A stretch of 64,000 nucleotides of DNA from Moniliella sp. 'wahieum' (GCA_003971905.1 RSEE01000079.1:1-64000); one strand, 5' to 3'. Counted from the stretch's first letter, positions 4,475 to 62,473 are shown. Program-made: numbers and translations. The notes: generated by a model not told the origin, from the letters alone.

Positions 4475-6117
4475 AGACGAGAGCAGCGGTGCTGGTGAGT
4501 GCTCAGCTGGGCGTGAGGGTGAGCACAGCGTGAGTGCAGGCGACGCTGTCCTTTTTTCAGTGACTCGCGTGCAGCGACGGGCTGAGGCATGATGCAGCCT
4601 CTTGAACATTGCATCTTCGCCGTTCAGCGCACCGCCACTGGCGCCGTGCCCGTCGGGCCCCACCAGTCGCCGACAATCCCGTCGTCACATGTCACATGTC
4701 ACCGGCCACTGCGACTGCCTGCGTGCTTGGCTCGGCAGACGCCGGGGCGAGCAGACGGGTGCGGTGCCAGGCGCCTCTCGCCTGTTGACGCTGGGGCGCT
4801 GCAAACGCTGGGGCAAGGTGCAATCGTCAGGCAGACTCCCCGACGGGCCGACGCCTGCGGCAGCCAGGCACACGCGTACTGCGCCTAACGTGCCATGCGT
4901 GACCAGGCGCAGAACAGCCTCCTCTGCAATTCCAAACACATCTCAGGCTGAGATCGCAGCCTGCCCCGACCTTTTCTCTCTCCCGTCCTCGCCCGTCTGT
5001 GGTGCCCTGCCACGCCAGCAACGCACCGTCCCAGATCTCAGCACCGCCCGCAAAGCCCCATTCAAACCACCTGGTCTCTCTTCCACTTCCATCCCTGTGC
5101 GCTCTGCTGCCAGCCCACGCCCCGCCTCCATGCAGCGCTGCGGCTGGGGGCGACTGTCAGCCTGGCATTCCTGGTGCCCATCCTCATGTGGTCGATGATC
5201 GATGGTTGATGACCCGCACCACGCTTCCGGTGACATGGATGACATGTGACGTGGTGACAGGTGGAACGTCACCTGTGTCACCCGCTCGAGTAGATGTGCC
5301 GCGGCTGCCCGTCACATGTCACGTGACTCTTGGTGGTCCGGCTGAATCCCACAAAGGTTGCTGCCAGCTGCGGAGGATTAGGAGGACCGTGCTGAAGCAC
5401 TCAAGCTTCCAGGGCCCGTCGGGAGCATATCCAGGTCCTACATCTCACACGCTCCCACCGAGTGCGAGCGGGTGCGAACCCCCCTTCCGAGATAAAGCTG
5501 AGAGAACGCAGATAGAAAAGTAGCACAAGCACATTGTACTTCGTCCGCAATCGGAGTTCTGACGAGCAGAGGCTATCGATATCCTCCTAGGTCGACCAGT
5601 GCGTGGGTTGAACGTTGAACGTTGACGCGTTGAACACGACACAGCTGGCGTGAGCTTGTTGGTGCACACTGGCCACTCCTCCACACCACCCCCACCCAAC
5701 CACCGGCCACCCATTCCATCCATGCTGCATCAGTGCATCAGCAGCTCACAACGTCTCACACGTCACACACGCATGTCAACACCCGCAGCGGTACCCGGTA
5801 CCCACACTAACTACTAAAGCTACTACTAGTAAGCAGTAAGATAGCGAACCAAGCATGGACCAGCGAGCCAGCTGATAAACCAAACGCTCAAGCTTCCCTG
5901 CAGCCATCAAAGCGATGCGAAACGCTTGGCTCCAATTACCAGAAACAGAAAGATCGACCTAGATCGACGCATGCGTATGGGGCCGCCAGCGGCGCCCCAC
6001 CCATAGCCATTCCATCGCCCTGTGCCATGGGACGGCCGGTCGCGGTGAATTAACGATTGGCAGTGGACCAAAACACCAGCAGAGTATAATTACAGCACTT
6101 CAAGCTGGGGTTATGCT

Positions 6118-6762
6118 TCAGCTCAGGCCTCTGCCGCCCCGCCAGGGCAAGGAGTTTTCGTCATGGAGAAGAATGACGTTGACCGTCGTATCGTCCCGGT
6201 ACCGGCACGACTCGGGGGACAGAATGGCCAGCAGCTCGGCCATCCGAACCCGCTGTGCACCTCCCAACGCATTGCCAATCAGATGCATCGACAGGTTGTC
6301 GTCGGCAAAGGTAAAACAAATCTGTTGGCCTTGGGCGGCGGGGGTAAGGGCATTGTGCCCTTGCTTCAATGTAACCGCTCATGAGCACGCAGCACACTGT
6401 CCACCTCATCGGATGCAAGGGCGGTGACAATCTTGTGCCCACCCCCCTGCACCTTGGAACGTACTGAGGTGAGGTGGCTGGGGATGAAGTGGCAAGCCCC
6501 CGGGCCCCCTCTGTTTGGGAGTAGGGTCTCAGGATAGAGACCTGCTAAGGTCACACAGCCGGCCACAGCAGCATAGGTGGGCCAGTGAAGGCGTAGGTGA
6601 TCTTTCAGCACTGAGGCAGGGAGCTTCTTGCCTGCGGAGAAGGGACATCAACGAACTGGATAGAGAGGGTGGCGTACCAATGGCTATGGATGAGGCAGCG
6701 TTCCCACCTGCCCCACTGGAGAGAAAGCAGCAAGACTAGCGTTGCGGACCAAAGCGGGGCAT
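6118..6762 (-). pseudogene. Internally deleted mitochondrial PP2C / pyruvate dehydrogenase phosphatase (Ptc5-like) relic
   Basis: An N-terminal-like segment (LKDHLRLHWPTYAAVAGCVTLAGLY...LASDEVDSVLRAHE) abuts the PDP C-terminal signature (DDNLSMHLIGNALGG...LLAILSPESCRYRDDTTVNVI). The catalytic core is absent, and stops and frameshifts are present. Confidence 0.65.
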
Positions 6763-6973
6763 GAAAGTTGAAATTGCTGTCCGCAGCCGGCGGCGCTTGA
6801 TTAATGATTCCGCCTGGCAGGAGGAAGCTGCTCGAACACGCAGCGAGCCAGCTTAAATTAGCCTGGCGGGCCATCCCATCGTCACCAGCATCACACAGCG
6901 CACAGCGCACCTCCTCAGCCCCTCCGCCACCGCCACCGCTTTTCATCCTTACACCACCGTCCGGCCTGTCGCC

Positions 6974-7920
6974 ATGGCGTCTGCCCCCTCTCCGCCTGCA
7001 AACGCAGAGCCAGTCTCCACCCTCCCGTTTCAGCCCAAGTCCACCAGCCCACAGACACCTCCCTCTCCCCCGCTGGCCCCGAGCCGCCCGCCCGCCACTG
7101 ACGCCCAAGCCCAATCCCAGTCCCAGTCCCAGCAACACAAACAACGCGCTGATTCTCTGTTCAAGAAACGCCTCTACTCGGAAGCTCAATCGGAGTACTT
7201 GGATGCGATTGCGGCTCTCCCTGTGCGGTCAGAGAGCGATGATGCTGCGACGCGCGACCTCCGGGCCACGTTGTATGCCAACATGGCTGCTGCAGCTCTG
7301 GGTGCCAAGCAGTGGGTCGAGGCGAGAGAGGCTGCCACGAATGGTAACTATCCCTTCTCCTCTTTCGTGGTCATTGAATATTGACTGACGATGGTGGGAT
7401 GGGGCCACCTACAGCTTTGCAGGACAAGCCGCTGTATGTCAAGGCGCTCTACCGACGGGCGACTGCATGCGAGCAAATTGGTGGCTTAACCGAACTGAAC
7501 GAGGCTCGAGCCGGTATGATCACCTGATTCGGTCTGGCTGGCTTTGTTCTGACCCGATATGGATGCTCATGCAGATTACGACAAACTGTGTTCTTTGCCC
7601 GATGACCCGCCTTTGGTCACACCTGCCAGCAAGGTGCAATGGCAGGCAGCTAAGCAACAAGTTGATGCACGCGCCCAAAAAGCGTTGCAAGAGGAGACGG
7701 AGCGAATGAAAAAGCTGGGCTTGCAAGCACTGAGTGATACCGCCAATGCATTCCTCAACCCTTTTGGCTTTTCTACCAAGGACTTTGGCTTTGAGCAACA
7801 GGTACCTAGTACTCTCAGGACGGAAACGCTGTTTGTGTGCGCGGTACTGAGTACTGACCCTCGCTGATTTGTCCTTAGGAAGGTGGCGGGTATTCCATCA
7901 ACTTTAACCGCGGAAGGTAG
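6974..7920 (+). CDS. TPR-repeat protein, TTC1-like
   Basis: TPR helices HKQRADSLFKKRLYSEAQSEYLDAI, LYANMAAAAL and YVKALYRRA. The C-terminus ANAFLNPFGFSTKDF...GGYSINF is typical of TTC1. GT-AG introns at 7344-7414, 7514-7574 and 7802-7878. Confidence 0.8.
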
Positions 7921-8432: not shown

Positions 8433-11334
8433 TTACTGTGCAGAGGCCAAGTCAAAGAAGCGCGCCACCACATCGCGGCCATTGAAGAGGTTGAGGATGC
8501 GGATGCGCTCATCGGCTAGGTGGGCAGCATCGGAAGCTTGGCCCATGGGAAGATGAACCGCCGTTGCTCCCAACTCGTTCTCCAGCATCGCAATGGCCGG
8601 GATCGAGCCACCCTCGCGAATGGCCACGGGCACCGACAGACCATCGGCTTGTTCGCAGGGTGCCATACGTCTCCCACCGCCTGTCGAAGCGCAACAAAGT
8701 AAGGCGAGTCGGTTTGGGCATCCCACCAATCGGCCGTGTGGTCCACCTGGATGGCCAGGTGGTTGGGGGAATGGAGTGCGAGAAACTGGTCATGCCAGAA
8801 CTGCGTCAAGGCCTCGACAATCTTGGGCAACGACTGGTCCGGAACAAGACGGACCGACACACTCGCCCGTACACGGTTGGGGATGACAGTGTTGTTGTTG
8901 GGCCCGGAGGCAGTGAGGGAGTGGACTGAGAGCGTGGGCGAACGCCAGCGCGCAACCAGGTCGCTAGCTACCACGTTGTGGGCGGTGGCGCGGCGCGGTT
9001 GGGGTTCATGCGAAGGGTCGGGCGAGGCTGTGGGCCAGCGGGCGTAGAGGCACGGACCAACACAGCAATCGAGGCGTAGTGCGCTTCTTCTTCCTTGCTT
9101 ACAGGACGAACGTGGTCGTAAAACCCGGGCACGGCCACCTCTGAACCTGAGGTAGTCTTGGCCAAAAGACTGATCATGTCGATCATGGGTTCCCGCACGG
9201 CACACCCCTCGACACAGTGTCACCCGGCCGGCGGCCCTCGATGCAAAGACTGGCCTGGATCACGCCACGCAAGCCGACCGTAAGGCAGGGTAAATCCTCC
9301 CCAAGCCAATACGAATTGGCGAGCAAGATCACGTCCTTTGAAAATGGGTCAGCGGCGGTCAACCGATATGAAAAGAGGGACATACGATTTGGCCCACTTG
9401 GTCTTTGACGGACCGGACGGCCTCCTGCAGCCCCGGAGAACCACGTTCCTCCTCGCCTTCCACACAGACCACCACATCGACGGGAAGAGACTTGGTGGCG
9501 ACCATGGCTGCTGCGGCGTAGATGGTGGCCAAGATGGGGCCTTTGTTGTCGCTGGCTCCACGGGCGTAGAAGTATCCATCAGCCCCACGCAATTGGAACG
9601 GGTCGGAACTCCAGCCTCCAGCGCCACGGTGCGGCGCCGAGATGACATCGTAATGTCCATAGTAGAGGATGCGGCGTGGATTAGCAATCCCAGGCTTGTT
9701 GGCTCGGAAGGTGGCGAGCACCACAGGGTTCCTGCCCCTCCCGGCAGAGACAAGACGGGCGCCGCTTGCCCCCAAGTCGGCGAGGAGCGACTTGAGCCAT
9801 AAGGCAGCTTGGCGGCACGCTTCAGTCGAGTCCCCTGGTGCCGACGAAGGACTTGACGCTTTGTCCTCCCGCCGACGCAAGTACCATGGTGAGTCGCTCC
9901 ATGTGACACGGAGGGGAAGGCAACAAACGCCGCCAGCGAGTGTGTCAGCTGGAGGTCACGGTACTCCTGGCTATCCTGCTCGGCAGCAAGAGGCATGTCG
10001 GGCTTCCAAACACGGGGCCGCTCCCCCTCGGCTGCTATAGGACTGACGGGAAGCCAGACTTTCAACAGAGAATCGTCTCCTCCCGTCAGAAGGAGTGGGG
10101 GATGTGGCCAGTGGGCAGGACCAGATCCGCACAAAGTACGGTGCCCTCGTGCGCCTTCCATGCTCCCACCAACCGGAAGCGGGGGTCAAAGTGCCGCACC
10201 CATCCGTCTGCTGAAGCGGCATAAACCCCAGCGGCAGCGGCTGTACTTGGCGTATGCTCCACACCCGGTGCAGCGGTGAGGGCAAGTACGTCGCTTCCAT
10301 TGGCGCCGGCAGGCAAAGAACGAATCAAGGTACGCGTCTCGAGATCCCAAACGTCCACTTTCCCCTTGACGCGCAGCAAAGAGAGTTGTTGTCCCACTCT
10401 GCTTGCCGGTTGGATCGGGTGCAGGCGTCCACGAAGCCAAGGCTAGCACTGCCCGGTCATCCTCTGGGGGCTGAGCAGGCACAAACAGGGTGTGTAGGTA
10501 CTCCAGCCCGCCCCAAGGGTGAGCCGGCGTGGGTGGCAAGACCGCCCAAAGCTTAATTTGCTCGTCGCCAGAACCAGAGACGAGAATCCAGTCCCCCTCA
10601 CCCGAGCGAATGAGGTCGAGAGTGTAGATGTACCCCATGTGAGCGGCGGGAATCATAGATTCATGGGCGAGGCGCAACGCTTGGGGCGCAGGTGCATTTG
10701 GAGACGCGACCGGATGTACAGGAGGCGAAGGGGGTTGGGAATCGAAGAACTTGTTCGGACGGCGTTCAGGAAGACCCACGTTCGGCGAAGGGCTGCCCGC
10801 ACGGGGCTGGGAGAGTGCCAGCTCTTCCTCCTTGATGGGCCCGTGGGGCTCAGTGGCGGATGCGGTGCGGTCGAGTTGCTTGGGCACGCCCTGGAATTGG
10901 ATCCAGTGGATCGACGTATTTTGGCATCCGAGAAAAGCATCTCCATTGGTTCACACCAGCGCAGCGCATAGATATCGCCCACATTGTCGTCGCAGGGATG
11001 CACGACATAGAGCGGGACGAGGGTGCGTGCGCACCAGATCCGCACTGTGTTGTCCCCACTCGAACTGAAAAGCCAATGGCGTGCGGATGAAGAGGATGCT
11101 GGAGCTGGGCTGCCGCGGCACACTGTCCTCAACTCTGCTGGCGGGCTCGGACGAGGCAAGCGCAAGCACGGCGGCCGTATGGCCATGAAGACGGGCGATC
11201 AGCTCGTATGTGCCGAGGCGCCAGACAAAGATGCAATGGGCCTGCGTGCCGGTAAAGACGCGGCCAAGCGATGCATCGACGGCGAGCGACAGGACCGAAG
11301 AGCTGCTGTGGCCAATGGAATGGACAAGTGCCAT
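8433..11334 (-). CDS. DUG2: WD40 + M20 metallopeptidase fusion (Dug2, glutathione degradation complex)
   Basis: N-terminal WD40 repeats (LFSSSGDNTVRIW, LVSGSGDEQIKLW, LLTGGDDSLLKVW) followed by M20 motifs YYGHYDVI, ARGASDNKGPI, EGEEERGS, IREGGSIP and SDAAHLADERI. Multiple frameshifts. Confidence 0.9.
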
Positions 11335-11608
11335 GGCGGTCGAGTCGGGCAGGTCAAAGATGGCGGTACGAACGGACGACATCGCCGCCTCGAGTCAGCT
11401 AGTCAATTGGTTGGCCAAGTTAATTCCGTAATCAAATTCTTATCCGTCTCGGCTGGCCTATCGTGCGCCAGCGTGTTGCACCTGGACAGAACAGTGGTTG
11501 GAACGCTCAACGATCGCCATCACACCATCTCTTCGTTGGGCCGGCCGGCGTTCAGCGTTCAGCTTGCAGGGAGTATTCAACCCTTATCGCCACCGATCAA
11601 TTGCCAGG

Positions 11609-13127: not shown

Positions 13128-13317
13128 CCTTGCCCTTCTGTTGGTGCTAATTGCAGTTGCTCTACAAGCCTTGGGGTGTATGGTGAGCGGCAGAGTGTGC
13201 TAGTCTGAGCTCTGAACTCGATGTAGAAACGCGAGCCAAGTGTGGAAAAAGGCACCGATTGATGTCAATACAGGGTCGAGCCGCAGATGGTCGTTCTTGG
13301 AGAAAAAACAAAATGAT

Positions 13318-13400
13318 AGGTCCCACTGGGATTCGAACCCAGGTTTCAGGAATACGACAGAGTCAGAATCCTACTTGCTAACCAACTACAATATGGAACC
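13318..13400 (-). tRNA. tRNA-Gln(CTG) with 10-nt intron
   Basis: Reverse complement reads GGTTCCA TA TTGT AGTTGGTTA GCAA G TAGGA TTCTGA[ctctgtcgta]T TCCTG AAAC CTGGG TTCGAAT CCCAG TGGGACC T. This folds into a full cloverleaf, with T-runs downstream. Confidence 0.95.
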
Positions 13401-13746
13401 TTCAGGTTCCAGCAAGCATATTTGGACCTTGATTTGGTGTTGTTGTCGTAGCATCTCTCGTTTATAGTGCCCAACTCACGTCGGATAATGAAGTGAGAAA
13501 GGAGAACGAGAATGCTGTTGTATGTAAAAACATCATATATATGTAAGACACATGCTTGTTACTACTCATATGCACAACCCGCCAGGGGTTAACAAGTAAT
13601 CAGAGGCGACCCTTGACGAGGGAAGAGCCACACCAACAGCAAAAAAGCAAATACTGAGCATATACCAATAGCTCATACCACAGAGTGTGGCACTTCTAAC
13701 AAAAAGATGAAGAGAAAGGGAAAACGTTGATGCACTCGACCTAATC

Positions 13747-15304: not shown

Positions 15305-16674
15305 AGAGAAAACGTGTATGCGTGTCAAAGAGCGTGTAAGGAAAAGAGTGTGCGGGTACGGTGCTTCCAACGAAGCAGGAAAGAGAGTGTGTTGGGAGAA
15401 GGGTAAAGTGTGGCTGTTCAAAAGAGGTGGACAAGAAAGGAAGAGGGTACGGGTATATAACCGAACTTACACGGCAAGGGAGAACATTATTTATATAACT
15501 GCGTCTCTCTCTGTAGCTCCTCGTCGGATGTGCTTTCGGAACAAGAAAGAGCGCTATGGAAGTTGTTGGCATACTATGATGATTCATCTCTATATCTTGT
15601 GATCCTGTGGGCTTAACGAAGTGCTCTGTTGTTACGTGTTAGGTACGAGGTAGTTCCCTCGGGCCGAGGATGATCGAGGGCAGGCACAGTCATGTCTTGT
15701 AAAAACAGCCCTGCTGAGTCTTGGCATTTTGTGTGATATGTGATACAGATGATGGGAAAGGATACGATTGCTCTCTCCTCTCCTTGGTGTCCCAATGGTA
15801 TGCCCTGATATCTGGTATGGCTCAAGAGCAGCTGTCCCGACTCTCCCTGAGCGAGGCGGCAGCGTAAGATTACCTCGGTATCCACCATGCAGATCAATCA
15901 CATCCAAGTCATCATGCACATGCCTAAGAGCCATCTATATCATTTGCGAGAAACATGTGCGCATAATGAGTTCAAGCTTCAAGGTCCATTAAGGAGAACC
16001 CCATCTCGTTGCCGAGAATCGCTCTTCATCACTAGGGTTCACCTATACTGTATTGCGTGTGGATTGGCTTTTTCAGGTGCATCATAATGTCATACTGTTC
16101 CTCTCCGGGGTACCCTCCAACACACAGCGAGTATGAAGGCCTAATAAGACCTAAGGACTGAGGTGAAGCTTGAAGCTTGAAGACTGAGTATTGGGGACCG
16201 AGTGTGTCTGGCTATGTGCACAGGGGAAGTGTGTTCCATGTCGCTAACCCACCCGGCTTGGAGGCAGTGTCGGAATCTCCCTTCCCCGCATTCGCCATAT
16301 TACTGGCAAGAGCACAGTCTCTATTGGTCTTGGCTTCACTGATCATGGCCAGACATCACTGATCAGGGTGGCTGGCCAAGCGCCGGTGTTCCACCTCATC
16401 GATGGTCATATATACCTGTCACAGTCGGGGGCTCAGCGCTACGCGAGCTCTAAACGAGGGGGACGAGAGCCGAGACAAGGGCAGGGAATGTAGCAAGCGT
16501 TCGTGGGGAAGAAGCGAGCGCCGAGGACACGGGGCGAAGCAGAATAACATGTAACAGGAAAAGAGCCAGGCGCTCGAGACAGGAAGTGGAAGTGGAAGCT
16601 CCGAGGTCGGAGAGCTCTCAGTACCAGTCTGAGAGCTCACGCTGATTCAGCCAAACTGTGACAGTCCCTGTCGA

Positions 16675-16698
16675 TCATGCATCATGCATCATGCATCA
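16675..16698. repeat. 7-bp lattice array (TCA-TGCA)x3-TCA
   Basis: Directly visible. Confidence 0.85.
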
Positions 16699-16855
16699 TG
16701 TGCATGCTGTGTCGCATGATGCATGGTTGCATGATGTGTATGATGCATGATATAACACCGGGAACGTCACCGGCGTCACGCGTCACGCGTCGACCACATC
16801 ATGGCAGAGGCGGTCGCCATTGGAAAGGGCGTTGCGAGGGCGTGCCACATGTTAG

Positions 16856-16879
16856 TGACTAGTGACTAGTGACATGTGA
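16856..16879. repeat. 7-bp lattice array TGA-CTAG-TGA-CTAG-TGA-CATG-TGA
   Basis: Directly visible. The palindromic spacer switches while staying in phase. Confidence 0.85.
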
Positions 16880-18119
16880 CAGAGGAGCTGCTATGGGTCA
16901 GCTCATAACCAACAGCACATCCGTTCCTCCATCCCATCCTGTTGTGCCTGAATCTCAGCGCTGCTGCTCCTCAGTGGATCCGCCAGGATATCCGCTTGTG
17001 TTGTACAAAGGAATGCATATATAGAGGTTGGTCTTATATAGTCTGTCAAATCACGCCAAGAAACCAAGAAAACCAAGAAAACGGGTATGCGTAACGTACG
17101 TCCCGTCACACATTTTCCAAAGCACATCCCCCATCGTGCGCATCCTCAGCTGAGGCCTCAGGGCCTCAGGCATGAGCCTCATGTATCATTAATCATTGAT
17201 TATCCTCCCCCCCAAAGCAAGCGTGTATAGTGATTCATGATGAGCGATGAGCGCTGAGCGTTACAGTGTACTGTCATATGGCACCACACCTGTAAATGCT
17301 TTTTTCGCAATTAACAGGCCAAGTCGCTACTAGTATATAAGTGGAACTGTGAGTTGCACCGCGACCGCATAGCTCGTTCCAGAGGTATATATCGTCGTGC
17401 CTCAGGCCGCCTCATCGTCATCGCTCTCTCCCTACCTTCTTTTCCTTTCCCTGTTGTACTCAAGAGGCCGTAACATTTTCGAGGTTCAGATTCCCTACTA
17501 ACACAAGCGCACAAGCACAAGCAGAGCTAGCAGAAGAGATGTATGTGATTGTTAGAATCCTGCAGCTCAGGAGCACCTGTGACTCTTATATATAGTGGCT
17601 GTATATGTCCCTCGCAGCGCAAGGGAGACGTGATGGAGTAAAAGGTGATGGATTCAAATCCCACATTCGAGCCATTCTCTTTCTGATCATTTGAGGTAAC
17701 CGCTATGTGGCAATGACCAACAGGATGAGGTCGATAAGGCTGGAGGCCCATAAAAGTCGACAAGGACATAATTGAAGGACAAAAAGAAAGAGGATGCCCC
17801 CGTAAACTATTCTTGAAAAGAGGTGTGGGTCAGGGGCATCAGCATATTAGAAAGCCATATGCAGCGTAGAGATGGAGAACTGCAAGGTGGAGGGGGGACT
17901 GCCAGCAGTGCCCTTCCACCAACAAAGGAGAAACATAGAGGTTTTTCTTAGATAAAAGAACGGGGTGGGGGTGTATGTTGTTGGGCGACGGGGTTCAGAG
18001 AGATTGCCGTATTATGAGACCTGTAATGAGGTTTTCAAGGAGAACCTGGGGCTAATGGAGCATGGAAAAGGTCTTCCCATCAGCCTCTTAGCCCAGGCCA
18101 ACTGTTCTTCTGGGCGCCT

Positions 18120-20502: not shown

Positions 20503-22281
20503 AATGATGAATGGAAGAAAGGCGATGAGAGAGGGGGATGCGGGAAAGAAAGGGCGGTCCGGCCGCGAAGAACAAAGAGGCGGGAAGGGGGAGATTGAAA
20601 AGAAGAAGGGGTGGGGAGCAATAGCAAGGGGTTGCGGAAAGAAGAGGGTATATATATGCAAACCGGGGGTGCTAGGTCATTCGTTGTTGGTACGGGTCTC
20701 GGCGAGAGGGAGATCCACATCTGCCCACGAGCACGGGGCAAATCCAAAAGATCGCCAGAGCGGAGGTACTCGATAGAGGAGAGAGGCGGACCGGAAGCAT
20801 GCAAAGGCAAATAGCAGCGCACCCACTTACGTCTACTAGTATGCTGTACCTCGCATATGCCTTCTGAGCTCTGACATGCGGGCTCCCACACCACACCCTA
20901 TAGCCTGTGGCGCCCCATCAGCAGTCGTTCGGCTCTGCCGGCGTGCACAGCTCGCCATCTCTCTTGCATCAGTGATTGCAATGCATATGCAGGAAGCCAA
21001 ATAGTTGTAACCAAGAACTGTGCATGGGTTGTTGCCTGTATGGGCCTAATCTTCATTGCAGTTACAACCTGCGCCGGTATAACGTCAAAACATTGTTGTG
21101 GATACCATCCAGTTTGTACTTCAATAAACACACAACTCTTCCTCTTATTGCATCCTACCATCAAAATGTCTCGTTGGTGGTTTCTGGCATGGTCGATTGA
21201 TGATCGAATGATCATTCATCGTATCGAAAGAGAGGTCTCAGATTTCACCAGCTCACAAGTAGTTACTATCACGCCCCGGCAGAAAAGACGAAGACCTAAG
21301 AGAGAATAACGAGGAGCACGCGTGGGCCGCGACTTGGGATTTCGAGAGGACCGTTGTCGGGCGTTGCATCATGTCTTCTCGGTTCTCTCTATTAAACGCG
21401 TGCTTCCCTTTTGCTCAGGCTTGAGTCTCAGGTAGCTGTACCTCTCCTCCATAGTTGTGGCTCCGAGCTGTGTCGTCAAAGCTGCGGCTGTGCGTTAGTA
21501 GGCCGATCATCGATCATCGACCAAGCCAGCCCGCTATGCACTACGCCACATTGATCTGTAACACTATTGAATAATAACTCCGTGAAGACGAGAGGCGCCT
21601 TGACCTTGAAGCTTGAGCTTGAGGCCTGAGGCCTGAGGCCGAGATGTGTATACACACTCACAACTCAACAATCGGTATAATATAGAAGGTATTGCATACG
21701 CACCTCGTCAGTATACTTGTTGAGCCATCGGGTGGCTCGTGCTTTGGTGTCCCTTCAGTTCCTCCTCAGGCCTGTGGGAGTTCCGTTGTTTCTCTCTCCT
21801 GTTTTTTCCTTGTTCCGCAGCTTAGCCCCTGGCGGCGACTTGCTGCGTTCCTCTGTAGGCGTTGATGGTTGGCTTAGACCACCACACCAGTGCGATTGCA
21901 TCACCCTCGAGGACCATCAGGACTCCAGGTCTCATCAATAATGCATCAATCCTGACCCATGCTCACACAGCTGTACTCTCCCGCTACTCCCATATTAGCT
22001 GTGCCACCCGATCTCAGATCTCAGATCTCATCGGCCATCCTCTCCACAGCGGAATTTTACGTGGCATGGTAGCGTTGTAAGACTTGGCAACGTGTAATAG
22101 GGTTCGCCCCACACTCGGTATAATACTCACAGGATTTGCGAGTAGGACGAATGGTTCAGCTCGTGTCTTGCTTCCGGCTGTGCCTGCCGCTCAGCGCTCA
22201 CATGTCACACAGCCAGTGCTTGCTCCGCACTCTTTCCCATCCCACATCGACGGTTTGATCGATCAGACTTGAAGCTAAGCC

Positions 22282-22319
22282 TGAGGCCTGAAGCTTGAAG
22301 CTTGAAGCTTGAACGTTCA
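22282..22319. repeat. 7-bp lattice array TGA-GGCC-(TGA-AGCT)x3-TGA-ACGT-TCA
   Basis: Directly visible. Three different palindromic spacers sit in one phase. Confidence 0.9.
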
Positions 22320-42476: not shown

Positions 42477-43590
<1,114 letters not shown>

Positions 43591-43839
43591 TCACGCGCAG
43601 CCTGAGAAGAATGATTAATTGATTAATGATGCCGATGATGGATGATTGACACGAACATTGAAACACTCAGCCATTACAAGTGCCATCCTGCGCTCACTAC
43701 ATCGCCCTTCTTCCTATGGCCACCATGCCGCCAGTATAACAGTGTCGTATACAGCACAACAGATAGCACTGGCAAGCATACATATTCTGAGGCGACTACA
43801 CCTCCGACATGACCGACTGCTGTCGCCCCGCATGGCCCG

Positions 43840-48438: not shown

Positions 48439-49099
48439 CGGTCTTACCGGTTGCCAGGCCTTGCGCTTAGCCCAGACCTGGATCGGGCCTGCTGGGGGCA
48501 GTAGGTGCTATGGAGCGCAGGCACGGCCCCATGACCTCATGTTACTCGTTGCTCGCATTCTCCATAGCCATGTCACGGCACCAATGACGTCACTACCATT
48601 CATCTTCTGTGGTTAATGACGCCGATTGAAGCTGAACTCAGCACTTTACCCTGTTCCGCCCAAGTTGTCACGTGATTGCATATTCCGCTCCTGATGCTGG
48701 CTAGAATGAACATTCAAGCTGTTGAAGATCATCGATGATCGATGATCCTCAGTGACGTTTCAATTGATGAATACCGAGGGGGTCACCGGTCACCGGGTCA
48801 CCGCCGGCCACCCTCCTTGTGTTTAATCGGTATACCCAGTGGCCCAGTACCCCCAATACTACAACTCAAGTCCATCCTATCCCAGATCCGCGCCCGACGG
48901 CCGTGGTCACAAGGCGAGAAGGAGTGGGGTTGGCGCAGCGCGGTGGCAATATGTATCGAGTGAACGGAGCACATCTCAGCGGGGAGATATAATGAACACA
49001 ACATCACTGGCATATATGGAGAGCTGATGAACTGGGACTGAGGACGATGAACGTTGGACAATGGGGGAGGAACATAGGCGGAGGGCGGATAGACCACAA

Positions 49100-49850: not shown

Positions 49851-51199
49851 TTGCTCTACGTCCGACTCCGACAGGAGGTTCTCCACCCAAATTTCTGGGT
49901 TACTCCACCATGGTCTCTCAAAAAGCATCGATGTCCACCGCAACAGTAGAGGGCAAGGTAGAAGAAGGTGGAAGAGAACAGGAAGCAGAGAGCATGCAGG
50001 GATAAACAAGAAGAGTGATGCAAAGCACCACGCAGTTCCGCGTTTTCTGCTTGCTACTTCCTTTATATATACTAGTCGCTAGTCACTAGTAACACGGCCT
50101 AGTTTACCAGTTACTACTTGCGATCAGTATCAATTTAAGTTAGAGTACAAGGGTATCTACGTAGTCGCTGGCGGTACCCACTACTACAGACACGTTATGC
50201 GCGTTATGCAGCTATGCATTATGCACATCGTATGTCATCAAGCATGATCAGGCCCAGGGCACAATGCCGGCCTGGCGCTGGTCTGCAGCGACAACTCCGA
50301 AGTACCCTCTGTGTTGCGCCGGCCGCTGCGCCCAGGGACCCACCACAGCTGTGCCTTACCGCCAAACGTTTCTCTTCTCTCTTCCCGTTAAATTCGTTAA
50401 AAGAGGCGCAGTAGCATGTTGGAAACCCACATGCGTCTCACATGGTGAGCACGTGTTAGCGCTGTTAGCCCTCATCGAGTCTCCGCCATTTGCCTATAAT
50501 AGGTGAATTTAGTTTGACGGAAGAGGCGGTGGAACAGCGACAGAATCTCTTGTCAGGCCTCTGGGGGCTCCTGCTTCAGAGCTCTCTTTCACTTCTTCCT
50601 TTTCGCATGCCACCTCCCTACCTAAACACGGCCCACATCTTTGCGTTCTGCCCCCTTTTGTACCAATCTTTGATTTGGAGATGCGATCGATCCTATGTAA
50701 TCAGGTGCTAACGGTTGGCCCTTATTGAGCCAGAATGAAGGACGGTTACCTATAACGAGCGAGTCTTAATCGTATACGCCGTTTCCGCCCACTTTTTGGG
50801 TTCAGATATCGAGTACACGCAACTTATATAGTTCCTGATGTGGGCACTCTCTCTCTGCAATTCTTGATACGGACATATAGTAAATAATACTGTTGATGAC
50901 GATATTCTACTATGCTTTTGTGGGTGCCGCCAGTCCATCCGTCCATCCGTCCATTACAGGAGCAGATCGAATTGGTGACGCATTATACCAAGGGTCGAGC
51001 AAGAAGGGGACTCGAAACGATCCAACCTTTGACGTAAAAACACCGAGAAAGCAGAAGAACGAGCATGAGGAGTCAAGCCGGTGAAGTGTGGAAAAGGTCT
51101 GTTTTCCTTAATTGGTGCCTTTTGGCTGTGCATGGTGGGCGTCAGCTCAGAGAAAATGCCTATTAGCTGAGGATATTGTTTCCAGCTCACAGGATCGAT

Positions 51200-51470: not shown

Positions 51471-53430
51471 ACGCCGCTGAGAAGAGGGTACAGTTACTAT
51501 CATATCGGGCTTGGGACGTGAAATGCTTACAAGCATGTGCCGCTTGGGGCTTGAAAAGCTTACAAGCATGTGCCAAAACGGAAATCACCTTCTGGCTGTG
51601 TATAACCTATAGTATATATTCAACACCCTGCAGGCGCACCCTGGTATGCCGCGACAACACTGCTACTACTTGGAAAGCTGTGTGATTTTTGTGCTGGAAT
51701 ATCGGAGTCTGCATGTGACTTTAATTGAGATAGGCGAATGGGGGGCCTAAAGTGGCTTCTTTGTTGAGCAGCCCTCCTTGGAAATACGGGGTAGGGGTAC
51801 ATGGATCGATGATCCTTTACAGATGAGGAAGAGATGAGATCGATAGCATATACGCGCGAGAGAGAGTTGTACGAAAGAACAGCAGGGGGGGGGAGTCAAG
51901 CGCTAGTAGGGAATAAGCTGAAGTTGAAGTTGGAGCGATATGATCGAATGTTAACATATGGGGCGCAAGAGAGAGAGAGCGCGGACGGATCTGGCGTAAG
52001 TGCGTCAGCGCGCATCAGCGCGTCAGCCCTCATCAAGAAACAAAAGAGCAGCGCATCAGTGAATAAAAGCATTCGCACTATTAGTAGGCTTAAATGAATG
52101 TACAGAGTCGGTCACTGATGTCCTATATCTAGGCTCGGCACAAGAGTATAATCGTAATATACTTCTAACGTTAACGTTTAACGTTTAACGTTTAGTAGTA
52201 ATGCGATCATATACCACACACTATATATGTCATCATACACTCTATCTTGGGTTAGAGTAGTTGCGTCTGGGACGTGTTGCAGGACGTGTTTCTCCTACGA
52301 TGGGGAGGCATGACAGGTATAGACCTTCGGCCTTCAAAAGATGTTGGTATATATAATGACAACCTTGTTCTCAGACGGGGGGGAGCTATTAAGGCGAATT
52401 TCAGCATATACTAGTGTCACACATAGTAGACACTGCTCCACATAGATCTTCACACAATGTGACCAAAGATGTCAAGTCTCTCTCTACCTGCAGGTAGGAC
52501 CCTCCTCTCGATCTCATCGATCATCTCTGTTACACAAGCTCCTACACATACAGCTGGGTGTGAGTAATATATACATTTGTGATTGGGTTCTGAAGTCTGA
52601 AGCTTGAAGGCTGAATATGTAAGCCTCAGTGTGAGGTGTGTGTCTCGGAGCCGCGGCACGTTGTATATAGTGCGAAAGCTTATGTGCTGCATACGATGGG
52701 GTTAGACTTTTGGCTAGGCTGGCAGATGATTTGCCAAACTGTCGGGGAGTGGAAGCAGCACCTATGTATGTCGCATCCGCCTGCCACCTCCTCTCTCCGC
52801 TTCCTACGATGGTTTGCTTGTGTGTGTGAGGTAAAAGGGGGGAGGGCACAACGCGGCAACCAAGACGCTGAGTGCTCAATTGAGCGCTGTAGGTGTGTTG
52901 TACTGGACCACTGAGTAGCTTTCATGGGGTGTGCAGTTTGTTGCCGCCGTGGCCTTATGGAGGCCCCAACTGATAAAGCACGCAGCTGTTGGCAAGGGCA
53001 CCAGTATTGCGCACGGCCAATGACAAACAGTCTCAGACGTATACTTTTTGTATGGCGCCTCGAGAGCATCATATATATATCGTAGCGACTTGACTTTTTC
53101 TCGCTCAGATATAAATAGACTGTGCTCCTTCCCTCCCCACACGCTGTCCATTCATGCCCTGCTCATGTGCCCACCGCCTTCCTCCCCGAGGCCCGGTTTC
53201 GCCCTACCAGCTCCTCACACTTTTGCCTCTTCCATGCCCAGTCCCACCAAGTCATCCTCCTCCTTTTCTCCTCCTCTTTCTCCTCCCAGGATCTTGTTTT
53301 GATTGAACAGTCCGACCCGTCTCCATCCACTGGCATCGCTGCCAACCCGCTTGTGCCCAGCCCCCGACGCCAGGTTTCGTGTTCAGCGGTTCCTCCTGTT
53401 ACCCAACCCCGCCTTTCACGCCAGAAGCGC

Positions 53431-55708: not shown

Positions 55709-55828
55709 GTTCCTCGCTCGCATGTCGACCACGTGCATCCGTGTCCACACGCGCTTCCTCGTGGGTATGGAAACGGATGGCGCGCACCAGAGGGTCCTGA
55801 TCTCCGGGCCATTCCCCTGTGGTTCCTT
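55709..55828 (+). mobile_element. Diverged 3'-end fragment of the adjacent non-LTR element
   Basis: Aligns by eye to 57773-57887 (FLARMSTTCIRVHTRF versus FLARMSTTFIRVHTRF). Confidence 0.85.
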
Positions 55829-56099: not shown

Positions 56100-58100
56100 G
56101 AATCTTTGCGCTTACGTCAAGTAAAAAGGGGTCTGCGTTATGTGCTCGACTTTACCAACGCCTTCAACCTTCAACCTTCAACACTGTGCGCCGTCGCACA
56201 CTCGCCAAGGCGCTCCATGCCTACGCCCCCATCTCCTCACATTGGGCCGATGGATCTATGGTTCCCCCACCCAGCTTTGGGTCGCGTCGGGCAGAAATGA
56301 GACCAGCGTCCTGTTGGCAGAGGGCGTACGGCAGGGCGACCCCCTCGCCCCCTTTTTCTTCTCCATCGCAGTGCGGCCCACGCTGGAGAAACTGGAAAAG
56401 GACCTGCCGCCGGGACACCTGGTGATGGCATACCTGAACGACATTACGATTTCGGTCCAGGGACAGGCATTACCGGCTTAGCCGCGGAGATTTTGGAAGA
56501 CGACGCGTCAGGCCTCAAGCTCAACCTGCGCAAGTGTGTCGAGCGGGACCGGGACCAGATTCGGGAGGATGGTCTGCAGGTTCTGGGCACCTGTGTGGGA
56601 GGGGTAGACTGTCGCCGATCGTGGCTCCGGGCCCAACTGGCCGGTCTGAGGGCGAACATGCCTAAGTTTGATGGCATCACCCGCCAGGGACGCCTCTTAC
56701 TATGGCGGCTCAGCACTCAGACCAAGCTGCGCCACCTGCTCCGCACCATGCAGATGGAAGGAGAGCTAGACGACGTGCTGGCTGAGATTGATGCCTTCAT
56801 CTGTACGGAGTTCAGACGGATCCGGGGCGACGAGGATCCCCAAGGTGCCAAGGACGACCACTTCGACATGCTCATGAGCCTGCCTCTCCGGATGGGAGGA
56901 TGTGGCAGCCCGCTTTACTCGTATATCGCGCCCCACGCCCGTGCCGCGGCCAACGAGGTCAACGACTATCTTATTACCACTTATGTTGACCGTTCGGGAC
57001 CGCAAACGGCAACGGCCAACGCATTTACGAAGCAACGCCAGCGCTGCCGCGAGATGTGGGAGCAAAGTCGACAGGAGCTGCTCCAGAAGCTGGACGCTGC
57101 CGATGGTCGCCATGTGGTTGAGCACAGCAACCCGCTGAGCCACAACTGGCTCTCCGCCATTCCGTCCGTCCCGTACCTCAAGCTCTCTGACCAGCAGGTC
57201 CAGGTTGGTCTCCAGCTCCGCACGCTGTGCCGCACCACGCGCAGCATATGCAACTGCGGTGTCATGTCCTCGCTGGAGCACATCATGTCTTGCACCCGCA
57301 CCCAGGCCAAGTTTAGTGCGTTGCATGAGGCAGTGCGGGAGCCCATTCTCCAGCTCATTCGCTCCATCCCCGACACTCACGTCCGCAACGAACCTATGGT
57401 GGAGGACGAGGATGGGACGAGGCGCGGACCGAGGGCCCAGCGCACCGACTACCGCGTGATGGGGCCTGGAGCACTGGGAGGATCAGGAATGGAGGTTGAC
57501 CACACGCTGCGCGACACGGGAACGCAAGAGGCGCAGAGCGCGTACCGGCGGGTGGTGCACGAGAGCACTGCGTCGCCTTTGGAACGCCGGGGAGAAGGAA
57601 CTGCTTCGGCTGCTTGAACAAGCAGAATGCGACAAGAACGCCAAGTACCAGGGACGCACTCAAGAGCCGTTTTCCCCCTGGTTTTGACGACGCGAGGATA
57701 CTACGGCACCAAGACGGCGGGCAAGTTGTTTGCGCATTGGAAGGAGTTGGCTACTAAGTCTCAGTGGAAATGGTTCCTCGCTCGGATGTCAACCACGTTC
57801 ATCCGTGTCCACACGCGCTTCATAGGGTACGGGACCGGATGGCGAGAACCGGAGGGTCCTGATATCCTGGCGATCCCCCTGGTTCCTCGACCTTAGTGGC
57901 GCTTCCAAGTAACCCCCCGCAAGATGAACGGTTCGGTTTAGACGTAGCGTTCCCCCTGTCCCAGCCTTAAGTTCTGTCAATGATATGGATTCAAAAGGGA
58001 AATTGGTGCTACCATGCAGCACACGCAAATAATGATGGGGCGGTTTATGCGTAGCGTTTCCCTGTCCCTGCCTTAAGCTCTGTCAATGATATATGGATGC
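56100..58100 (+). mobile_element. 5'-truncated non-LTR retrotransposon with RT and C-terminal REL endonuclease (CRE/Cnl1-like)
   Basis: LDFTNAFN-TVRR, GVRQGDPLAPFFF, AYLND (YLDD-like), GLKLNLRK, LPLRMGGCG, CxC...HxxxC...H knuckle, RTD...EVD...KNAKY endonuclease motif. The ORF ends at 57896. Confidence 0.88.
57934..58098 (+). repeat. ~57-bp imperfect direct repeat x2 in the element's 3' region
   Basis: 57934-57990 versus 58041-58098. Confidence 0.85.
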
Positions 58101-61100
58101 AATATAGAGCCGCAGTTGCGGTCTGCTGGAGCCAACTACCATTTGCGCGCGTGATCGGCTAGGACGAACGTAAACATAACTTTGTTACTCACTGGCCTCG
58201 ACGGACGAGAGAGAGAGAGGGTATATCACATTAAGAAAAAGCGAGAGAAAGCCAAGCAAGTGTTGTAGCTGGCTTGTCTCTTGCCTTTTTTCTTACATTT
58301 GTCGAGTTGACAGGAAAAACGGGTTGGATAACTTGGATGACTCTGTTTGTCGTTCGGATTCAGTTTGTGATCAAGCTTGCGACGTTTTCGATGCCGTGGA
58401 GGCTCGAAGGACTTGGTTGTCGTTCGTGGCGCCAAGTGAGGCGACGCTGGGTTTCTGCCCCAAACTCCACTGCGGACCATCGCGTCCGACACACCTTGGA
58501 TGCAACCAACCAACACACGCAGCATTTGCAATAGATCCTTTATGCCTTGTTGGGTGGCTTTTGAATCAAGTAGATCAAACGCGCCCTCCTTTGAGACCCA
58601 TCAGGATGGAATACAGAGGAAGAAGGTGCAGTAGGGACATCATTATAGACCTTCTGGAGCCGACTGTGCACTGTCCCTAACCAGGGCATCCCACTTATTT
58701 TGGGGTGCTACATGGCCCAAGAGGAGCAAGCACATGTCCCACAGTTGATGGTCCGAGTGCCCGCACCAGTAGGATAGCGTAAAAAGTCGACTTGGAGTGC
58801 ACGAAAGATGCGAAAGAGAAGCGTTTGAATTGTGAGCTCGACCGGGCGAGTGATCATTTCGATCCGCTGGAGAACATGACCCACGTCTTGTTCTTCACCG
58901 GGTAGCGGCGATATGGGACGTCGGGTGGGAGGAACGGTGTAGAAGTGATCGTTTTACCATCTTTGGGGGTCGAGGGTAAGCTGGGAGAGCAGCGTGATGG
59001 CGGTGGGGTGGGCACCATTAAGGTGAACGAAGTGGGGGCCGCCGATTCCAACGGACGTTTTTCACGCTCCTGAACAAGGCTGTTGGGGAGATTTGTGTTG
59101 TAGGGTGCATTTGTCGGCGTAGAGCGTTGCGATGTAGCACGCAGACCACACTCAGGACATGAGGATGGTGGAGGGCTGGATCTGGTAGGGAAGGAGCCGT
59201 GGCGGGAGCGGGGCATATGAGGAGGGATGTGAATGGACGATGAGGCGCTGATCACAGTGTAGCCCTTCGAGGAGTAGGTGCTGCGAAGCGAGGGACGTGA
59301 TGGCACCAGTGGGACAGAGGAGGCGATTGGAGAACGCGCGCCGGTGGAAGTGGAGGCAAATTTGTGTTCCAGGAAGGGGGGCGCGGCGGACGGGGGGGGG
59401 ATGCGCTTGAACTCGGTGGTGGAGGGCAGGACAGGTCGCAACAGCATCGCCAGCAAGGATGTAGTGGGTGGATCGGAGGGATGCCGCCAGAGAGGGGGGG
59501 TAGATCGTGGGAGGAGGGCGGATGCAGTGACTTTTAGTGGGGGAGGGGCACGTCTGAGGATTTGGCATGCCTGTCACCATGTCACGCCTGAGTCTCTGCG
59601 TTGTCACAGTGGTTCAAAAGTGGTATTTTTGTGTTGCTGCAGAGAACAGCCCAGTTTAATTGGACACTGCGCCACGCACTGCACCTGTCACGGATACCCC
59701 TAGGTTTTGCAAGCGTCGGCCGCGAGCCGACCGATGTCTCTGTCGGAACCACCGGCCCATTCCCGATTGCGCACCGATACTCACCTGTCACACATCGCCT
59801 CTCCGGTCCACCGCCTCAGCAGTTCAACGTTCGTTCGCTCCTAGCCAGCACCCGTCTATCTTGGGGGCGGTGTGCCGCCGGGACGGGGGGGGGGGGGGTC
59901 GTGCCTACCAAATTGTACACACCCGATCCGAACCGGCTTCCCAGGCGCTTCGGCCAGCAGGTGATAGATGATATTGATGATAACTCGATAACCGATGATT
60001 TTTTTGACGAAGACCCCATGACCGGTGACCTCACCGGTAAGAGGCGAGATCTGAGGAGCTGAGAGCGCTCAGCCTGAGTTCAGCGCCTGCCTGAGCTTGC
60101 AGGCGCTGAAAATCGAAGTCAGTACGCATACTTGTTCTATGCGCGCCCACAAGGGGTTGATGGAATGCACCCTGCCAACAAGTTCCAACAGGGGTTGGCG
60201 TTGCTGTTGGTACTGTTGAGTGTCTTGAAGCTTGAAGAGGCAAACTGAAGTGTGACCGATTGCTCATTGTGCGGGCCTGTGGGTTCTCTATCCCATTTCC
60301 GGCGGGCGGCTGACGCACTGACGTGCTACGTCATTATACGCGGTACGATGCCTCCCAGTCCTCGAAGCTATACGGAGTGGGCTCATTACTACTCCAAGAC
60401 CATCAACTGTCTGCTCTCTGGCCTTGTACGGAGTGGATGTCAGAATGATAAGAGATTTTCACAGACACTTCAAGCAAGCAAGCAAGACGATGGCATCTTT
60501 GCACATTACCACCGACTGATGCTATCCCAGCTTTTTCTCAGAACATGACGCGGACGTGCGCTTGCTCGAAGTCGGACAACTACGCGCCTCAGTATACAAC
60601 TTGCGTGTACCCGTGAAAGGCACCGTTGGCATCCGTGCTAGGACGGACCGCGCGGAGCCGAGTCCCGTGCGCGGAGCCGAGTCCCGTGAGTCAGTCTTTC
60701 TTTCCTTCCGAGCTCGCACAGCGCACCAGTCTTGTGGGCGCGATTCAGGCGCAGAAGCTTTCTAGTCGAATACGACCCCAGTGCTCAGCCTGAGCGCTCG
60801 CTCACATGCCACATCCAGTGGCAGTAGCGAGGCCGTCCGGCACTGACTGCCGCAACAGCTCCGGCGTTATACGACTGCCAAAAGGGACAAGGAGTGTCGC
60901 GATCATGTCATCGGATGTACGAGAACTGGTGCCACCTGGTGCCAGTCCTGCATATTACCTAATCCACGCCTTGCTTGGAGCGGCGGCCAACGTCCATTCT
61001 GTGTTGGTCGAGTGGGATCTGCGGGGCGCAGCTTATCCCTCCCGAGCCACCACTGCGCTGGGCTGCCGTCTCCTGCCCCTCGGCCTCACGCCTGCCATGG

Positions 61101-62473
61101 ACTCTGCTGCAACATCCGTTCCACTCTCGCCTCCCGATCTTCCCGTCACTGCGCCCACCTTACCCTTGCTTGACCCACCCAACGCACGCTCCCGCTTGTC
61201 TTCTCTACCGTACTAACCTCTCTACATTTTCTGAACTCGTACTTTCCCTTATTTCTCCCTTGCCGTGGGCACCACCCTGGCCCGGGAGGCGATTGCGCGA
61301 AATAAAGTGGGATCCCTCGATCCCGTGCTACGAGTGGAATCGAAGGAAACTCCGTTGGCTGGCACGCTCTGACAAAAGCGAATCCAGGCCGAGGCTAGCA
61401 GATTCAAAGTTGTCTTCTTTTCAAGGCGCACAGACAGAAGAAACAGACTTAAAGTCTACATGATGACAGCCTTTGTGGAGGGGGGCTGACCATGATCACC
61501 AAATGGATTGAGATTGTTGGGATTGGGAAGTGGAACGGAGGATAGGGATCCGATGGCAAGCGACGCTCACTCTGGTAGCTCAGGCCGGCGAGAGAAAAAT
61601 TGAAATCAGAGGATGAGAAGGCGGGGGGAGGGAGAAGAAGAGGAAACACACGATACGCGAATATGACTCGTAGGTATGGTGGGAAAGAGAACATTATCGC
61701 AGGCACTTCCAAAGACGTCGGGATGGCGGGGACGGTGTTGCGCCGTGAGCTTAACAGTAGTAACACTCTCGGATAACGTCGAGAGTATCAGACCAGACGA
61801 TAGTGAACGGTAACCGGTAACGAAGTATTGAGTGGAGCGAGCGAAGCATGGGGCGGTGGTGGCCACGACAAAGGAGGGAGAGAAAGCCAGGGAGGAGAGG
61901 CCGCACGCATGCGGGCTGCCCGCTGCGCCCCGTCAGTGCGCTGAAGCGGATTGTGTTGCCTGTGGGCAAGCTATCCATATCTACGTACGTCACGCGTCAC
62001 AACACGTGCCAATGTACTAGTGACGCGTGACCGCGTGACGCCCAAACCGCCATCAGTACTCAGTGCGCCAGCCATCGGCACATCGACACAGCAACGCTCT
62101 GTGCAACTACCATCTCTCGAACAGCTTCCTTGACGCAGGGCTTCGGGCGTAGCAATGAGCGCAAGGAAACCGGGTGTAACCTCTATGGGGACCTTCGTGT
62201 GGGAGATACGTGCCAAGCTAGTACGAGTCAAAGAGATCAAAATCAACGTGGGCAAGCAAGCGCAACCGCAAGAGCTTTCAGAATGACCGCATGCTGCTCT
62301 CTCCCTTTCGGTGCTGTCTATCATGACATCCGTCAGATAGCTTGCGGCGACAAAGCTGAAGGAAAGAACCCATCTGTCACCCGTCGTGCCACGAGGCCGC
62401 TCGACAGATGAAGAGACCCGGGATTGGAAGCGGGGATGGGAGATGCTGCAAGCGGGATGGGGTCATCATCAAT

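Follow-up and report, generated by a model that had tools for sequence, protein, structure and literature searches.

T-N-A repeat units in a Moniliella contig

The stretch analysed here (the window) comprises 64,000 nt of Moniliella sp. 'wahieum' (GCA_003971905.1 RSEE01000079.1:1-64000; coordinates are those of the whole stretch), fungal DNA of 56% G+C with genes split by introns. A Pfam scan of the 131 window open reading frames (ORFs) of at least 140 amino acids matched a secretory LIP lipase, an M20 peptidase, an aminotransferase, a protein kinase and a Gti1/Pac2 protein, as well as NFACT, an arginine methyltransferase, a C2/SMP MUG190-like protein and Arf. The subject of this analysis is a pattern in the non-coding DNA, in which the triplet T-N-A (N, any base) is repeated at a distance of 7 bp and the four bases between the copies form a self-complementary 4-mer. 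Together with its junction variants this pattern makes up 76 loci and about 100 events (Table 1), which very probably represent mutational scars and not a functional lattice. The original prediction had described T[CG]A triplets kept in 7-bp phase around changing palindromes, read either as a regulatory or chromatin element or as the trace of a duplication or template-switch process peculiar to the lineage; all 18 of the example strings that it cited are present in the window at the coordinates given.

Chance expectations for the window statistics were taken from 50 dinucleotide-preserving shuffles. The string T[CG]A-N4-T[CG]A occurs 146 times against 66.4 expected, and its N4 is palindromic in 73 cases, or in 53 once chains are collapsed, with 4.0 expected and a shuffle maximum of 11. 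Spacers of 2, 3, 5, 6 and 7 nt show no excess of palindromes, and their totals of 61-89 compare with 67-70 expected. Among the 16 possible a-N-b frames, enrichment is found in T-N-A alone (90 vs 8.4 expected). Lag-7 match runs of at least 5 number 166 against 52.6 expected, and those that contain T-N-A with a palindromic 4-mer unit number 60 against 0.8; exact period-7 runs of at least 14 nt number 43 against 2.75, and 23 of them have the same T-N-A and palindrome form. The original observation is confirmed, and the claim that at least 12 of the 16 self-complementary 4-mers are used can be raised to 15, with TATA missing.

Natural DNA gives a similar contrast. In 280 kb of unrelated environmental eukaryotic contigs (metagenome contigs with an Arf exon), scar 12-mers occur 13 times, or ~3 per 64 kb and mostly in AT-rich low-complexity sequence, vs 85 in the window, and N4 is palindromic in 28 of 302 cases vs 74 of 136 in the window when counted for this comparison. 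The 80 loci found in these Arf contigs included no close relatives and served solely as the natural-DNA control; metagenome contigs with a lipase ORF returned 49 pattern matches, with no relative among them.

The central base of the triplet, predicted to be C or G, is preferentially so. Loci divide 64:12 between C or G (S) and A or T (W) centres, while unscarred non-coding T-N-A sites divide 1038:436 (odds ratio 2.2, p = 0.009); W centres nevertheless occur, such that the central position is properly written N. TCA and TGA loci are equal in number (32:32), and the 34 reconstructed targets reveal no preference for particular flanking bases.

A gene map based on ORF length and G+C content at third codon positions was dropped as too noisy in GC-rich DNA, and coding sequence was represented instead by Pfam-supported ORF segments (10.2 kb) and by windows of codon periodicity. 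None of the 76 loci lies in the Pfam-supported segments (p ~2e-6). Windows of strong periodicity hold 0 loci vs 11.5 expected, and those passing a laxer threshold hold 4 vs 19.5 expected, in agreement with the scarcity in coding DNA noted originally. This depletion does not choose between readings, because coding DNA would lose 7-nt insertions whatever their origin. In 36 kb of non-coding DNA the 76 loci stand beside 1,474 unscarred T-N-A sites, placing the scarred fraction at ~5%.

Flank templating and junction classes

We denote the ancestral site as xy-TNA-rs and the inverted complements of rs and xy as s'r' and y'x'. The palindrome can be derived from the two bases beside T-N-A in 66 of the 74 palindromic pairs that share their N, with the left flank alone as template in 21, the right flank alone in 26 and both in 19; neither flank serves in the other 8, a class reported against 2.2 expected by chance. 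The commonest lag-7 class is a 12-nt minimal array (n=24), a direct repeat of five bases whose copies are separated by a dinucleotide that is the inverted complement of the one next to it. Eighteen of these 24 arrays fall in two of the seven phases, TNA-rs-s'r'-TNA-rs or its mirror xy-TNA-y'x'-xy-TNA (p = 3e-6). Read from the sequence, the minimal event is a 7-nt insertion.

Chains carry the same rule further. In each of the five chains with at least two different palindromes, the leftmost palindrome matches the left flank and the rightmost matches the right flank, and in four of the five there is a single switch of palindrome, the arrangement that repeated hits on one ancestral xy-TNA-rs site should leave. 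The earlier remark that different palindromes are joined in register, beyond the reach of slippage, is borne out by these chains. At least two units are present in 14 of 68 chains, ~2x the prediction for independent re-hits. Scars with 0, 1 and 2 mismatches number 85, 67 and 150 against 0.4, 5.7 and 63.5 expected, a spectrum that suggests scar production continuing over a long time; taken with the scarred fraction, it points to a rate per T-N-A site of roughly the same order as the per-base substitution rate.

Plain, non-palindromic duplications of nnTNAnn belong to the same family, with 9 pairs against 0.08 expected. T-N-A is centred in all four non-palindromic exact 14-nt runs that hold it (p = 4e-4) and in five of six such runs of 14-15 nt, the exception lying at 63832. 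Two loci, 17239 and 52589, combine both kinds of unit, plain and palindromic, in register upon the same ancestral 7-mer. Junctions were described by one scheme, TNA + (rs trimmed 0-2) + (0-3 inverted bases) + (xy trimmed 0-2) + TNA. Of the pairs that match a class of this scheme, sorted by net gain, 76 are +7, 18 are +8, 6 are +9, and +10 and +11 have 1 each. These classes are specific to T-N-A: the other 15 frames give 0-5 pairs at +8 and 0-3 at +9, and shuffles give at most 0.2 per class. The +8 and +9 variants consist of the 7-bp duplication plus inverted bases, each of the six +9 events consisting of two complete 7-mers with 2 inverted bases between them. Together, the centred plain duplications and the T-N-A-specific +8 and +9 classes favour a 7-bp stagger over a combination of five direct and two inverted bases.

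The notion of a constant phase therefore holds for the majority of pairs (76 of 102) and fails for the 26 that are out of phase, among them the +8 and +9 pairs. Two of the arrays originally listed change accordingly. That at 21607-21640 does contain AGCT and GGCC units, one unit being 6 nt long, while the segment 61990-62030 contains two separate scars plus an inverted pair in place of a single in-phase chain.

Other geometries were considered for these junctions. A 5-bp duplication with 2 P nucleotides suits the commonest class and fails for the plain 7-bp, +8 and +9 classes, and a 3-bp T-N-A duplication with a 4-nt filler cannot produce plain rs+xy spacers. Were the target a 4-bp palindrome with a T-S-A footprint, minimal arrays would lie in a phase that only 1 of 24 occupies. 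Retention of both overhangs (+11 with two palindromes) accounts for 0-1 cases.

Two side observations concern the variant classes. A TTA centre is found in four of the six +9 events (22543, 50193, 50386 and 50454), although W centres account for 12 of 76 loci, and joint processing may depend on the centre base. Exact duplications with a period of 8 or 9 (20 and 14, respectively) also far outnumber those in shuffles (~1 and ~0.2); T-N-A is present in 11 of the 20 and 5 of the 14, and those without it could have been left by other elements or be repeats within reading frames.

Proposed origin of the scars and rival explanations

The sequence shows the rules of the scars, their numbers and their depletion in coding DNA; the break, the flank hairpins, the hairpin-opening nuclease and a transposon as agent are inferred. 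The whole account, in which scars result from 7-bp-stagger cutting at nnTNAnn, hairpin formation on the flanks and repair, with transposon insertion and excision as the source, has in our estimate an even chance of being correct. A cut-and-paste DNA enzyme would cut xy-TNA-rs with a 7-bp stagger centred on N, leaving a copy of the 7-mer on each side as a target-site duplication. The intervening DNA would then depart, and each flank would be sealed as a fully paired hairpin. A nuclease of the Pso2/Artemis type would open the hairpin 2 nt off its tip to give a 4-nt self-complementary overhang, rs+s'r' on the left flank and y'x'+xy on the right. End joining would mostly retain one overhang and clip the other flush. 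The product, either xy-TNA-(rs s'r')-TNA-rs or xy-TNA-(y'x' xy)-TNA-rs, would be 7 nt longer than the original site. In rarer joints, attributed to tip opening or partial trimming, both 7-mers would survive with 0, 1 or 2 inverted bases, producing the plain 7-bp duplication, +8 and +9 classes. Chains would follow from repeated hits on duplicated T-N-A sites, possibly helped by slippage, and such re-hits would let a left-flank palindrome and a right-flank palindrome stand in register. The excess of chains with at least two units may arise partly because overhangs are complementary at quasi-palindromic sites. The proposed 2-nt offset agrees with the behaviour of yeast Pso2, which is required for repair at Ac/Ds excision sites and cuts hairpins on their 3' side, with a preference for the position 2 nt from the apex (PMC3299998).

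The likeliest agent, at even chances or a shade below, is a cut-and-paste transposon that inserts and later excises. We suggest more tentatively, and slightly short of an even chance, that an undescribed and probably still active enzyme system in this fungal lineage leaves stereotyped scars at one or more per kb of non-coding DNA, whether as a cut-and-paste transposon family or a domesticated transposase, with a 7-bp stagger centred on T-N-A and RAG-like fully paired hairpins. If so, this system would rank among the leading sources of indels, account for most heptamer micro-repeats and keep supplying promoters with new palindromic motifs.

Several observations weigh against this account. Eight palindromic pairs lack any templating flank, and the chain at 22280-22319, with three palindromes and one flipped centre, requires extra steps. 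The near-uniform outcome (76 of 102 pairs at +7) is tidier than published Ac/Ds footprint spectra, and a scarred fraction of ~5% demands a long-lived and very active agent. A 7-bp duplication with terminal inverted repeats (at least 12 of 14 matches) was found 0 times in the window and 0-1 times in shuffles, in a scan that would miss elements without inverted ends such as Kyakuja, and none of the 131 scanned ORFs has a transposase Pfam domain. The candidate element end CTCACTG occurs 6 times in the window with no paired structure. The internal repeats of the window, when treated as before/after pairs (a tRNA-Gln pair, a diverged 119-nt repeat and a coding-like 21-nt array), yielded no informative 7-nt indel. 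The absence of an element from the window counts weakly here, since a low-copy cut-and-paste family could still accumulate scars.

That same absence, in both the inverted-end and the Pfam scans, is what would be expected if the breaks came from a host nuclease, a domesticated transposase or other T-N-A cutter with a 7-bp stagger whose products enter the same repair chemistry. The very high and apparently steady density of scars through time points the same way, and domesticated hairpin-forming transposases are known in yeasts. Flank hairpins, however, normally require transposon ends, and a low-copy transposon leaving many scars would also explain an element-free window; we consider a host nuclease unlikely, and the window data do not tell it apart from a transposon. 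An error of replication would dispense with the break altogether. Here the nascent strand would fold back or switch template at a quasi-self-complementary T-N-A, copy two bases of the opposite strand and realign. The products do contain neighbouring bases copied in both orientations, and template switching at quasi-palindromes is an established class of mutation. This route does not predict plain 7-bp duplications with T-N-A exactly at their centre, nor does it predict the +9 class (7-mer, 2 inverted bases, 7-mer), and no homology guides realignment 5 nt back. Strict specificity for T-N-A with any flank indicates a protein that recognises its site, which further counts against template switching and leaves it improbable. 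Of the two processes offered originally, a lineage-specific footprint is the one supported by flank templating (66 of 74), fixed phase (18 of 24) and the junction variants, which resemble those of end-joining scars.

Slippage of hairpin-prone 7-nt units, in which palindromic units expand more readily as a microsatellite, draws support from the twofold excess of multi-unit chains and from the enrichment of exact duplications of periods 6, 8 and 9. It cannot create the first unit, however, whose inverted dinucleotide is new sequence, nor can it join different palindromes that each fit their own flank; the commonest class is a 12-nt minimal array in fixed phase, and the T-N-A requirement is unexplained. 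A slippage microsatellite that has no rule linking unit to flank does not fit the fixed phase and flank templating, and we regard slippage as very improbable. The same low standing applies to a regulatory or chromatin lattice in which a dimeric protein reads TGA/TCA 7 bp apart plus the symmetry and selection maintains the arrays. Such a role would suit their position in non-coding DNA and the presence of 17 of 76 loci at 32-36 kb, upstream of a Gti1/Pac2-type regulator gene. The half-site element proposed originally nevertheless finds little in the sequence to recognise: T-N-A is its sole fixed part, 15 of 16 palindromes are used and each is set by the neighbouring bases, about one quarter of pairs leave the 7-bp phase, and plain non-palindromic duplications belong to the same scar family. 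The coding depletion is expected from any frameshifting insertion. As a transcription-factor site array the loci appear to have no conserved recognition sequence at fixed spacing, given 15 of 16 palindromes and 26 of 102 pairs off-phase. Some scars may later have been co-opted as regulatory sequence.

Related transposons and other features of the window

Of the families compared, none has all of the tested features. Among the nearest known systems is the excision of hAT elements (Ac/Ds) in plants, budding yeast and Candida, with 28 footprint types among 128 Candida clones (PMC5873905). The likeness lies in the retention of both target duplication copies, in flank hairpins opened by Pso2 and followed by end joining (PMC5873905, PMC3299998), and in a mixture of small deletions and P-nucleotide insertions, represented here by the spread of net gains from +7 to +11. 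In contrast, the hAT duplication is 8 bp and the scar unit here is 7 bp; the target here is centred on T-N-A, with no element seen in the window; and the Ac/Ds palindromes, which result from a nick offset by 1 nt, are odd, because they centre on the complement of the element-adjacent base (PMC5873905), whereas those described here are even 4-mers. Odd junctions of the hAT type number 0-2 vs 0.2-1.1 expected, and the even form numbers 85 vs 0.4.

Even palindromes composed of the last 2 flank bases and their inverted complement, together with diverse junctions, recall the fully paired hairpins of the RAG/Transib type and the P nucleotides of V(D)J coding joints. The target duplication of Transib and RAG is 5 bp, which cannot yield centred plain 7-bp duplications or the +9 class, and V(D)J joining takes place at a programmed locus, unlike the genome-wide germline pattern of a fungus. 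Duplications of 7 bp are found in the basidiomycete DNA transposons hAT7 (Puccinia, Melampsora) and Kyakuja (Laccaria) (PMC12730594). These are cut-and-paste elements whose duplication has the length deduced here from the scars alone; the window contains neither such an element nor its transposase, and the hAT junction geometry does not fit. The NuwaII group of PIF/Harbinger-like (PHIS) elements, reported from two basidiomycetes, has the target C|TNA|G. It shares the T-N-A target that is the sole enriched frame here and differs in a duplication of 3 bp (or 5 bp, CTNAG) against a unit of 7 bp (PMC4482050); the C and G flanks beside T-N-A have frequencies of 0.19 and 0.29 in the 34 reconstructed targets vs a background of 0.25 and 0.25. 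Cryptococcus CNIRT6 and KDZ are also basidiomycete cut-and-paste elements, with duplications of 3 bp and 4-8 bp (PMC12810828), and do not match.

Searches of full-text literature, with subscription journals largely beyond their reach, found no account of T-N-A-centred 7-nt scars or of such an excess of heptamer repeats in fungi, and likewise no match for the suggested parallel with 7-bp repeats of smut fungi. The window adds the centred plain 7-bp duplications, the T-N-A-specific +8 and +9 classes, the failure of hAT geometry, the natural-DNA control, the test in which five of five chains agreed with their flanks, and the link to 7-bp-duplication transposons and the Pso2 offset. If the transposon account is correct, the stagger length, target, hairpin geometry and opening offset of one enzyme could be read from thousands of natural scars, a reading of enzyme chemistry that few genomes permit. 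A single footprint class could then dominate the indel spectrum of a genome, and micro-repeats and palindromic promoter sequences would arise without selection. The scars are usable as a lineage marker and a source of length polymorphism, and the agent, if found, could become a transposon tool with a simple T-N-A target.

Table 1. The 76 scar loci of the window. No strand is assigned to any locus; the second column gives the T-N-A form, and +n is the net gain in nt.
Locus	Form	4-mers or unit	Junction
4683-4703	TCA	CATG/CATG	palindromic +7 units x2
5607-5627	TGA	ACGT/ACGT	palindromic +7 units x2
5728-5742	TCA		+8; 1 flank base kept, 2 inverted, 2 direct
6796-6809	TGA	TTAA	one +7
7373-7386	TGA	ATAT	one +7
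7846-7859	TGA	GTAC	one +7
9172-9187	TCA		+9; complete 7-bp duplication plus 2 inverted bases
11550-11563	TCA	nnTCAnn	plain 7-bp duplication, non-palindromic
15732-15745	TGA		plain 7-bp duplication, 14 nt exactly, T-N-A centred
15970-15983	TCA	AGCT	one +7
16162-16182	TGA	AGCT/AGCT	units x2
16543-16556	TAA	CATG	one +7; W centre
16673-16700	TCA	TGCA x3	
16774-16787	TCA	CGCG	one +7
16854-16881	TGA	CTAG/CTAG/CATG	CTAG templated by left flank AG, CATG by right flank CA
17156-17170	TCA	GGGCC	+8; 20-nt string identical with 33452
17184-17197	TCA	TTAA	one +7
17239-17259	TGA	GCGC	plain 7-bp duplication, then in-register palindromic unit
21199-21213	TGA		+8
21505-21518	TCA	TCGA	one +7
21605-21638	TGA	AGCT, GGCC/GGCC	one 6-nt unit between AGCT and GGCC
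21933-21950	TCA		+11; inverted bases of both flanks
22012-22032	TCA	GATC/GATC	
22189-22209	TCA	GCGC/CATG	own flank templates each
22280-22319	TGA	GGCC/AGCT x3/ACGT	final centre flipped to TCA; outer palindromes flank-templated, middle needs extra step
22415-22428	TCA	AGCT	one +7
22543-22558	TTA		+9
22592-22605	TAA	CATG	one +7
24879-24892	TCA	CGCG	one +7
25472-25487	TGA		+9
26167-26180	TAA		+7, non-palindromic
26447-26460	TCA	GGCC	one +7
26943-26956	TGA		plain 7-bp duplication, 14 nt exactly, centred
28043-28057	TGA		+8
28070-28084	TGA		+8
28101-28115	TGA		plain 8-bp duplication
28381-28397	TAA		+10
28413-28426	TGA	TGCA	+7
32410-32423	TGA	AGCT	one +7
32531-32544	TTA	CTAG	one +7
32735-32764	TGA	CTAG x3-4	longest array
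33452-33466	TCA	GGGCC	+8; 20-nt string identical with 17156
33485-33498	TGA	GTAC	one +7
33521-33551	TGA	TCGA/TGCA/TGCA	own flank templates each
33552-33566	TGA		+8
33811-33824	TGA	CATG	one +7
33913-33927	TCA		+8
34206-34219	TCA		plain 7-bp duplication, 14 nt exactly, centred
34281-34303	TCA	TGCA/ACGT	own flank templates each
34488-34503	TGA	AGCT	+7
34780-34793	TCA	AGCT	one +7
34807-34820	TGA	GATC	one +7
34926-34943	TCA	ACGT	+7
35021-35035	TCA		+8
35259-35272	TGA	GTAC	one +7
36121-36135	TCA		+8
40921-40935	TCA		plain 8-bp duplication
43610-43629	TGA	TTAA	+8; originally listed as 43620-43629
48729-48747	TCA, then TGA	TCGA/TCGA	centre C to G inside chain
48781-48802	TCA	CCGG, then CCGGG	+7, then +8
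50193-50208	TTA		+9
50386-50401	TTA		+9
50454-50469	TTA		+9
52169-52196	TTA	ACGT x3	W-centred array
52512-52525	TCA	TCGA	one +7
52589-52609	TGA	AGCT	plain 7-bp duplication, then in-register palindromic unit
56162-56182	TCA		plain 7-bp duplication x2 (3 copies)
59572-59586	TCA		+8
59979-59993	TAA		+8
60017-60030	TGA	CCGG	one +7
60224-60237	TGA	AGCT	+7; site fully quasi-palindromic
61809-61822	TAA	CCGG	+7
61988-62001	TCA	CGCG	one +7
62026-62040	TGA		+8
62051-62064	TCA	GTAC	one +7
63889-63903	TCA		+8

The cluster at 32-36 kb is the densest of the window and sits in a ~3-kb gene-free spacer upstream of the Gti1/Pac2 (Wor1-like) regulator gene at 36840-37628 (+); at 34-40 kb the sequence has a strong strand skew towards C and T. 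An identical string of ~20 nt with the same +8 scar (GGCC-TCA-G-GGCC-TCA-GGCA) is present at 17151-17173 and 33447-33470, in unrelated spacers with unalignable flanks, and reflects either independent, convergent scars at an identical 11-mer or the mobility of a very short motif. The first 6 kb (1-6000) form a block of 64-68% G+C with many overlapping long ORFs, zero Pfam families and G-rich hexamer/GGA repeats at 72-327 and 4344-4483; scars in this block start just at its 3' edge (4683).

The two tRNA-Gln(CTG) genes, at 13317-13401 (-) and 26798-26881 (-), are ~91% identical over ~100 nt including their immediate flanks, beyond which the surroundings are unrelated. Within long minus-strand ORFs at 18204-18439, a G+C-rich 21-nt unit, its length a multiple of 3, is repeated nine times and probably encodes a Gly/Pro-rich repeat protein with no Pfam match. 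The 119-nt direct repeat (84% identity) occupies 55709-55827 and 57773-57887, on both sides of the ORF region 56301-57614.

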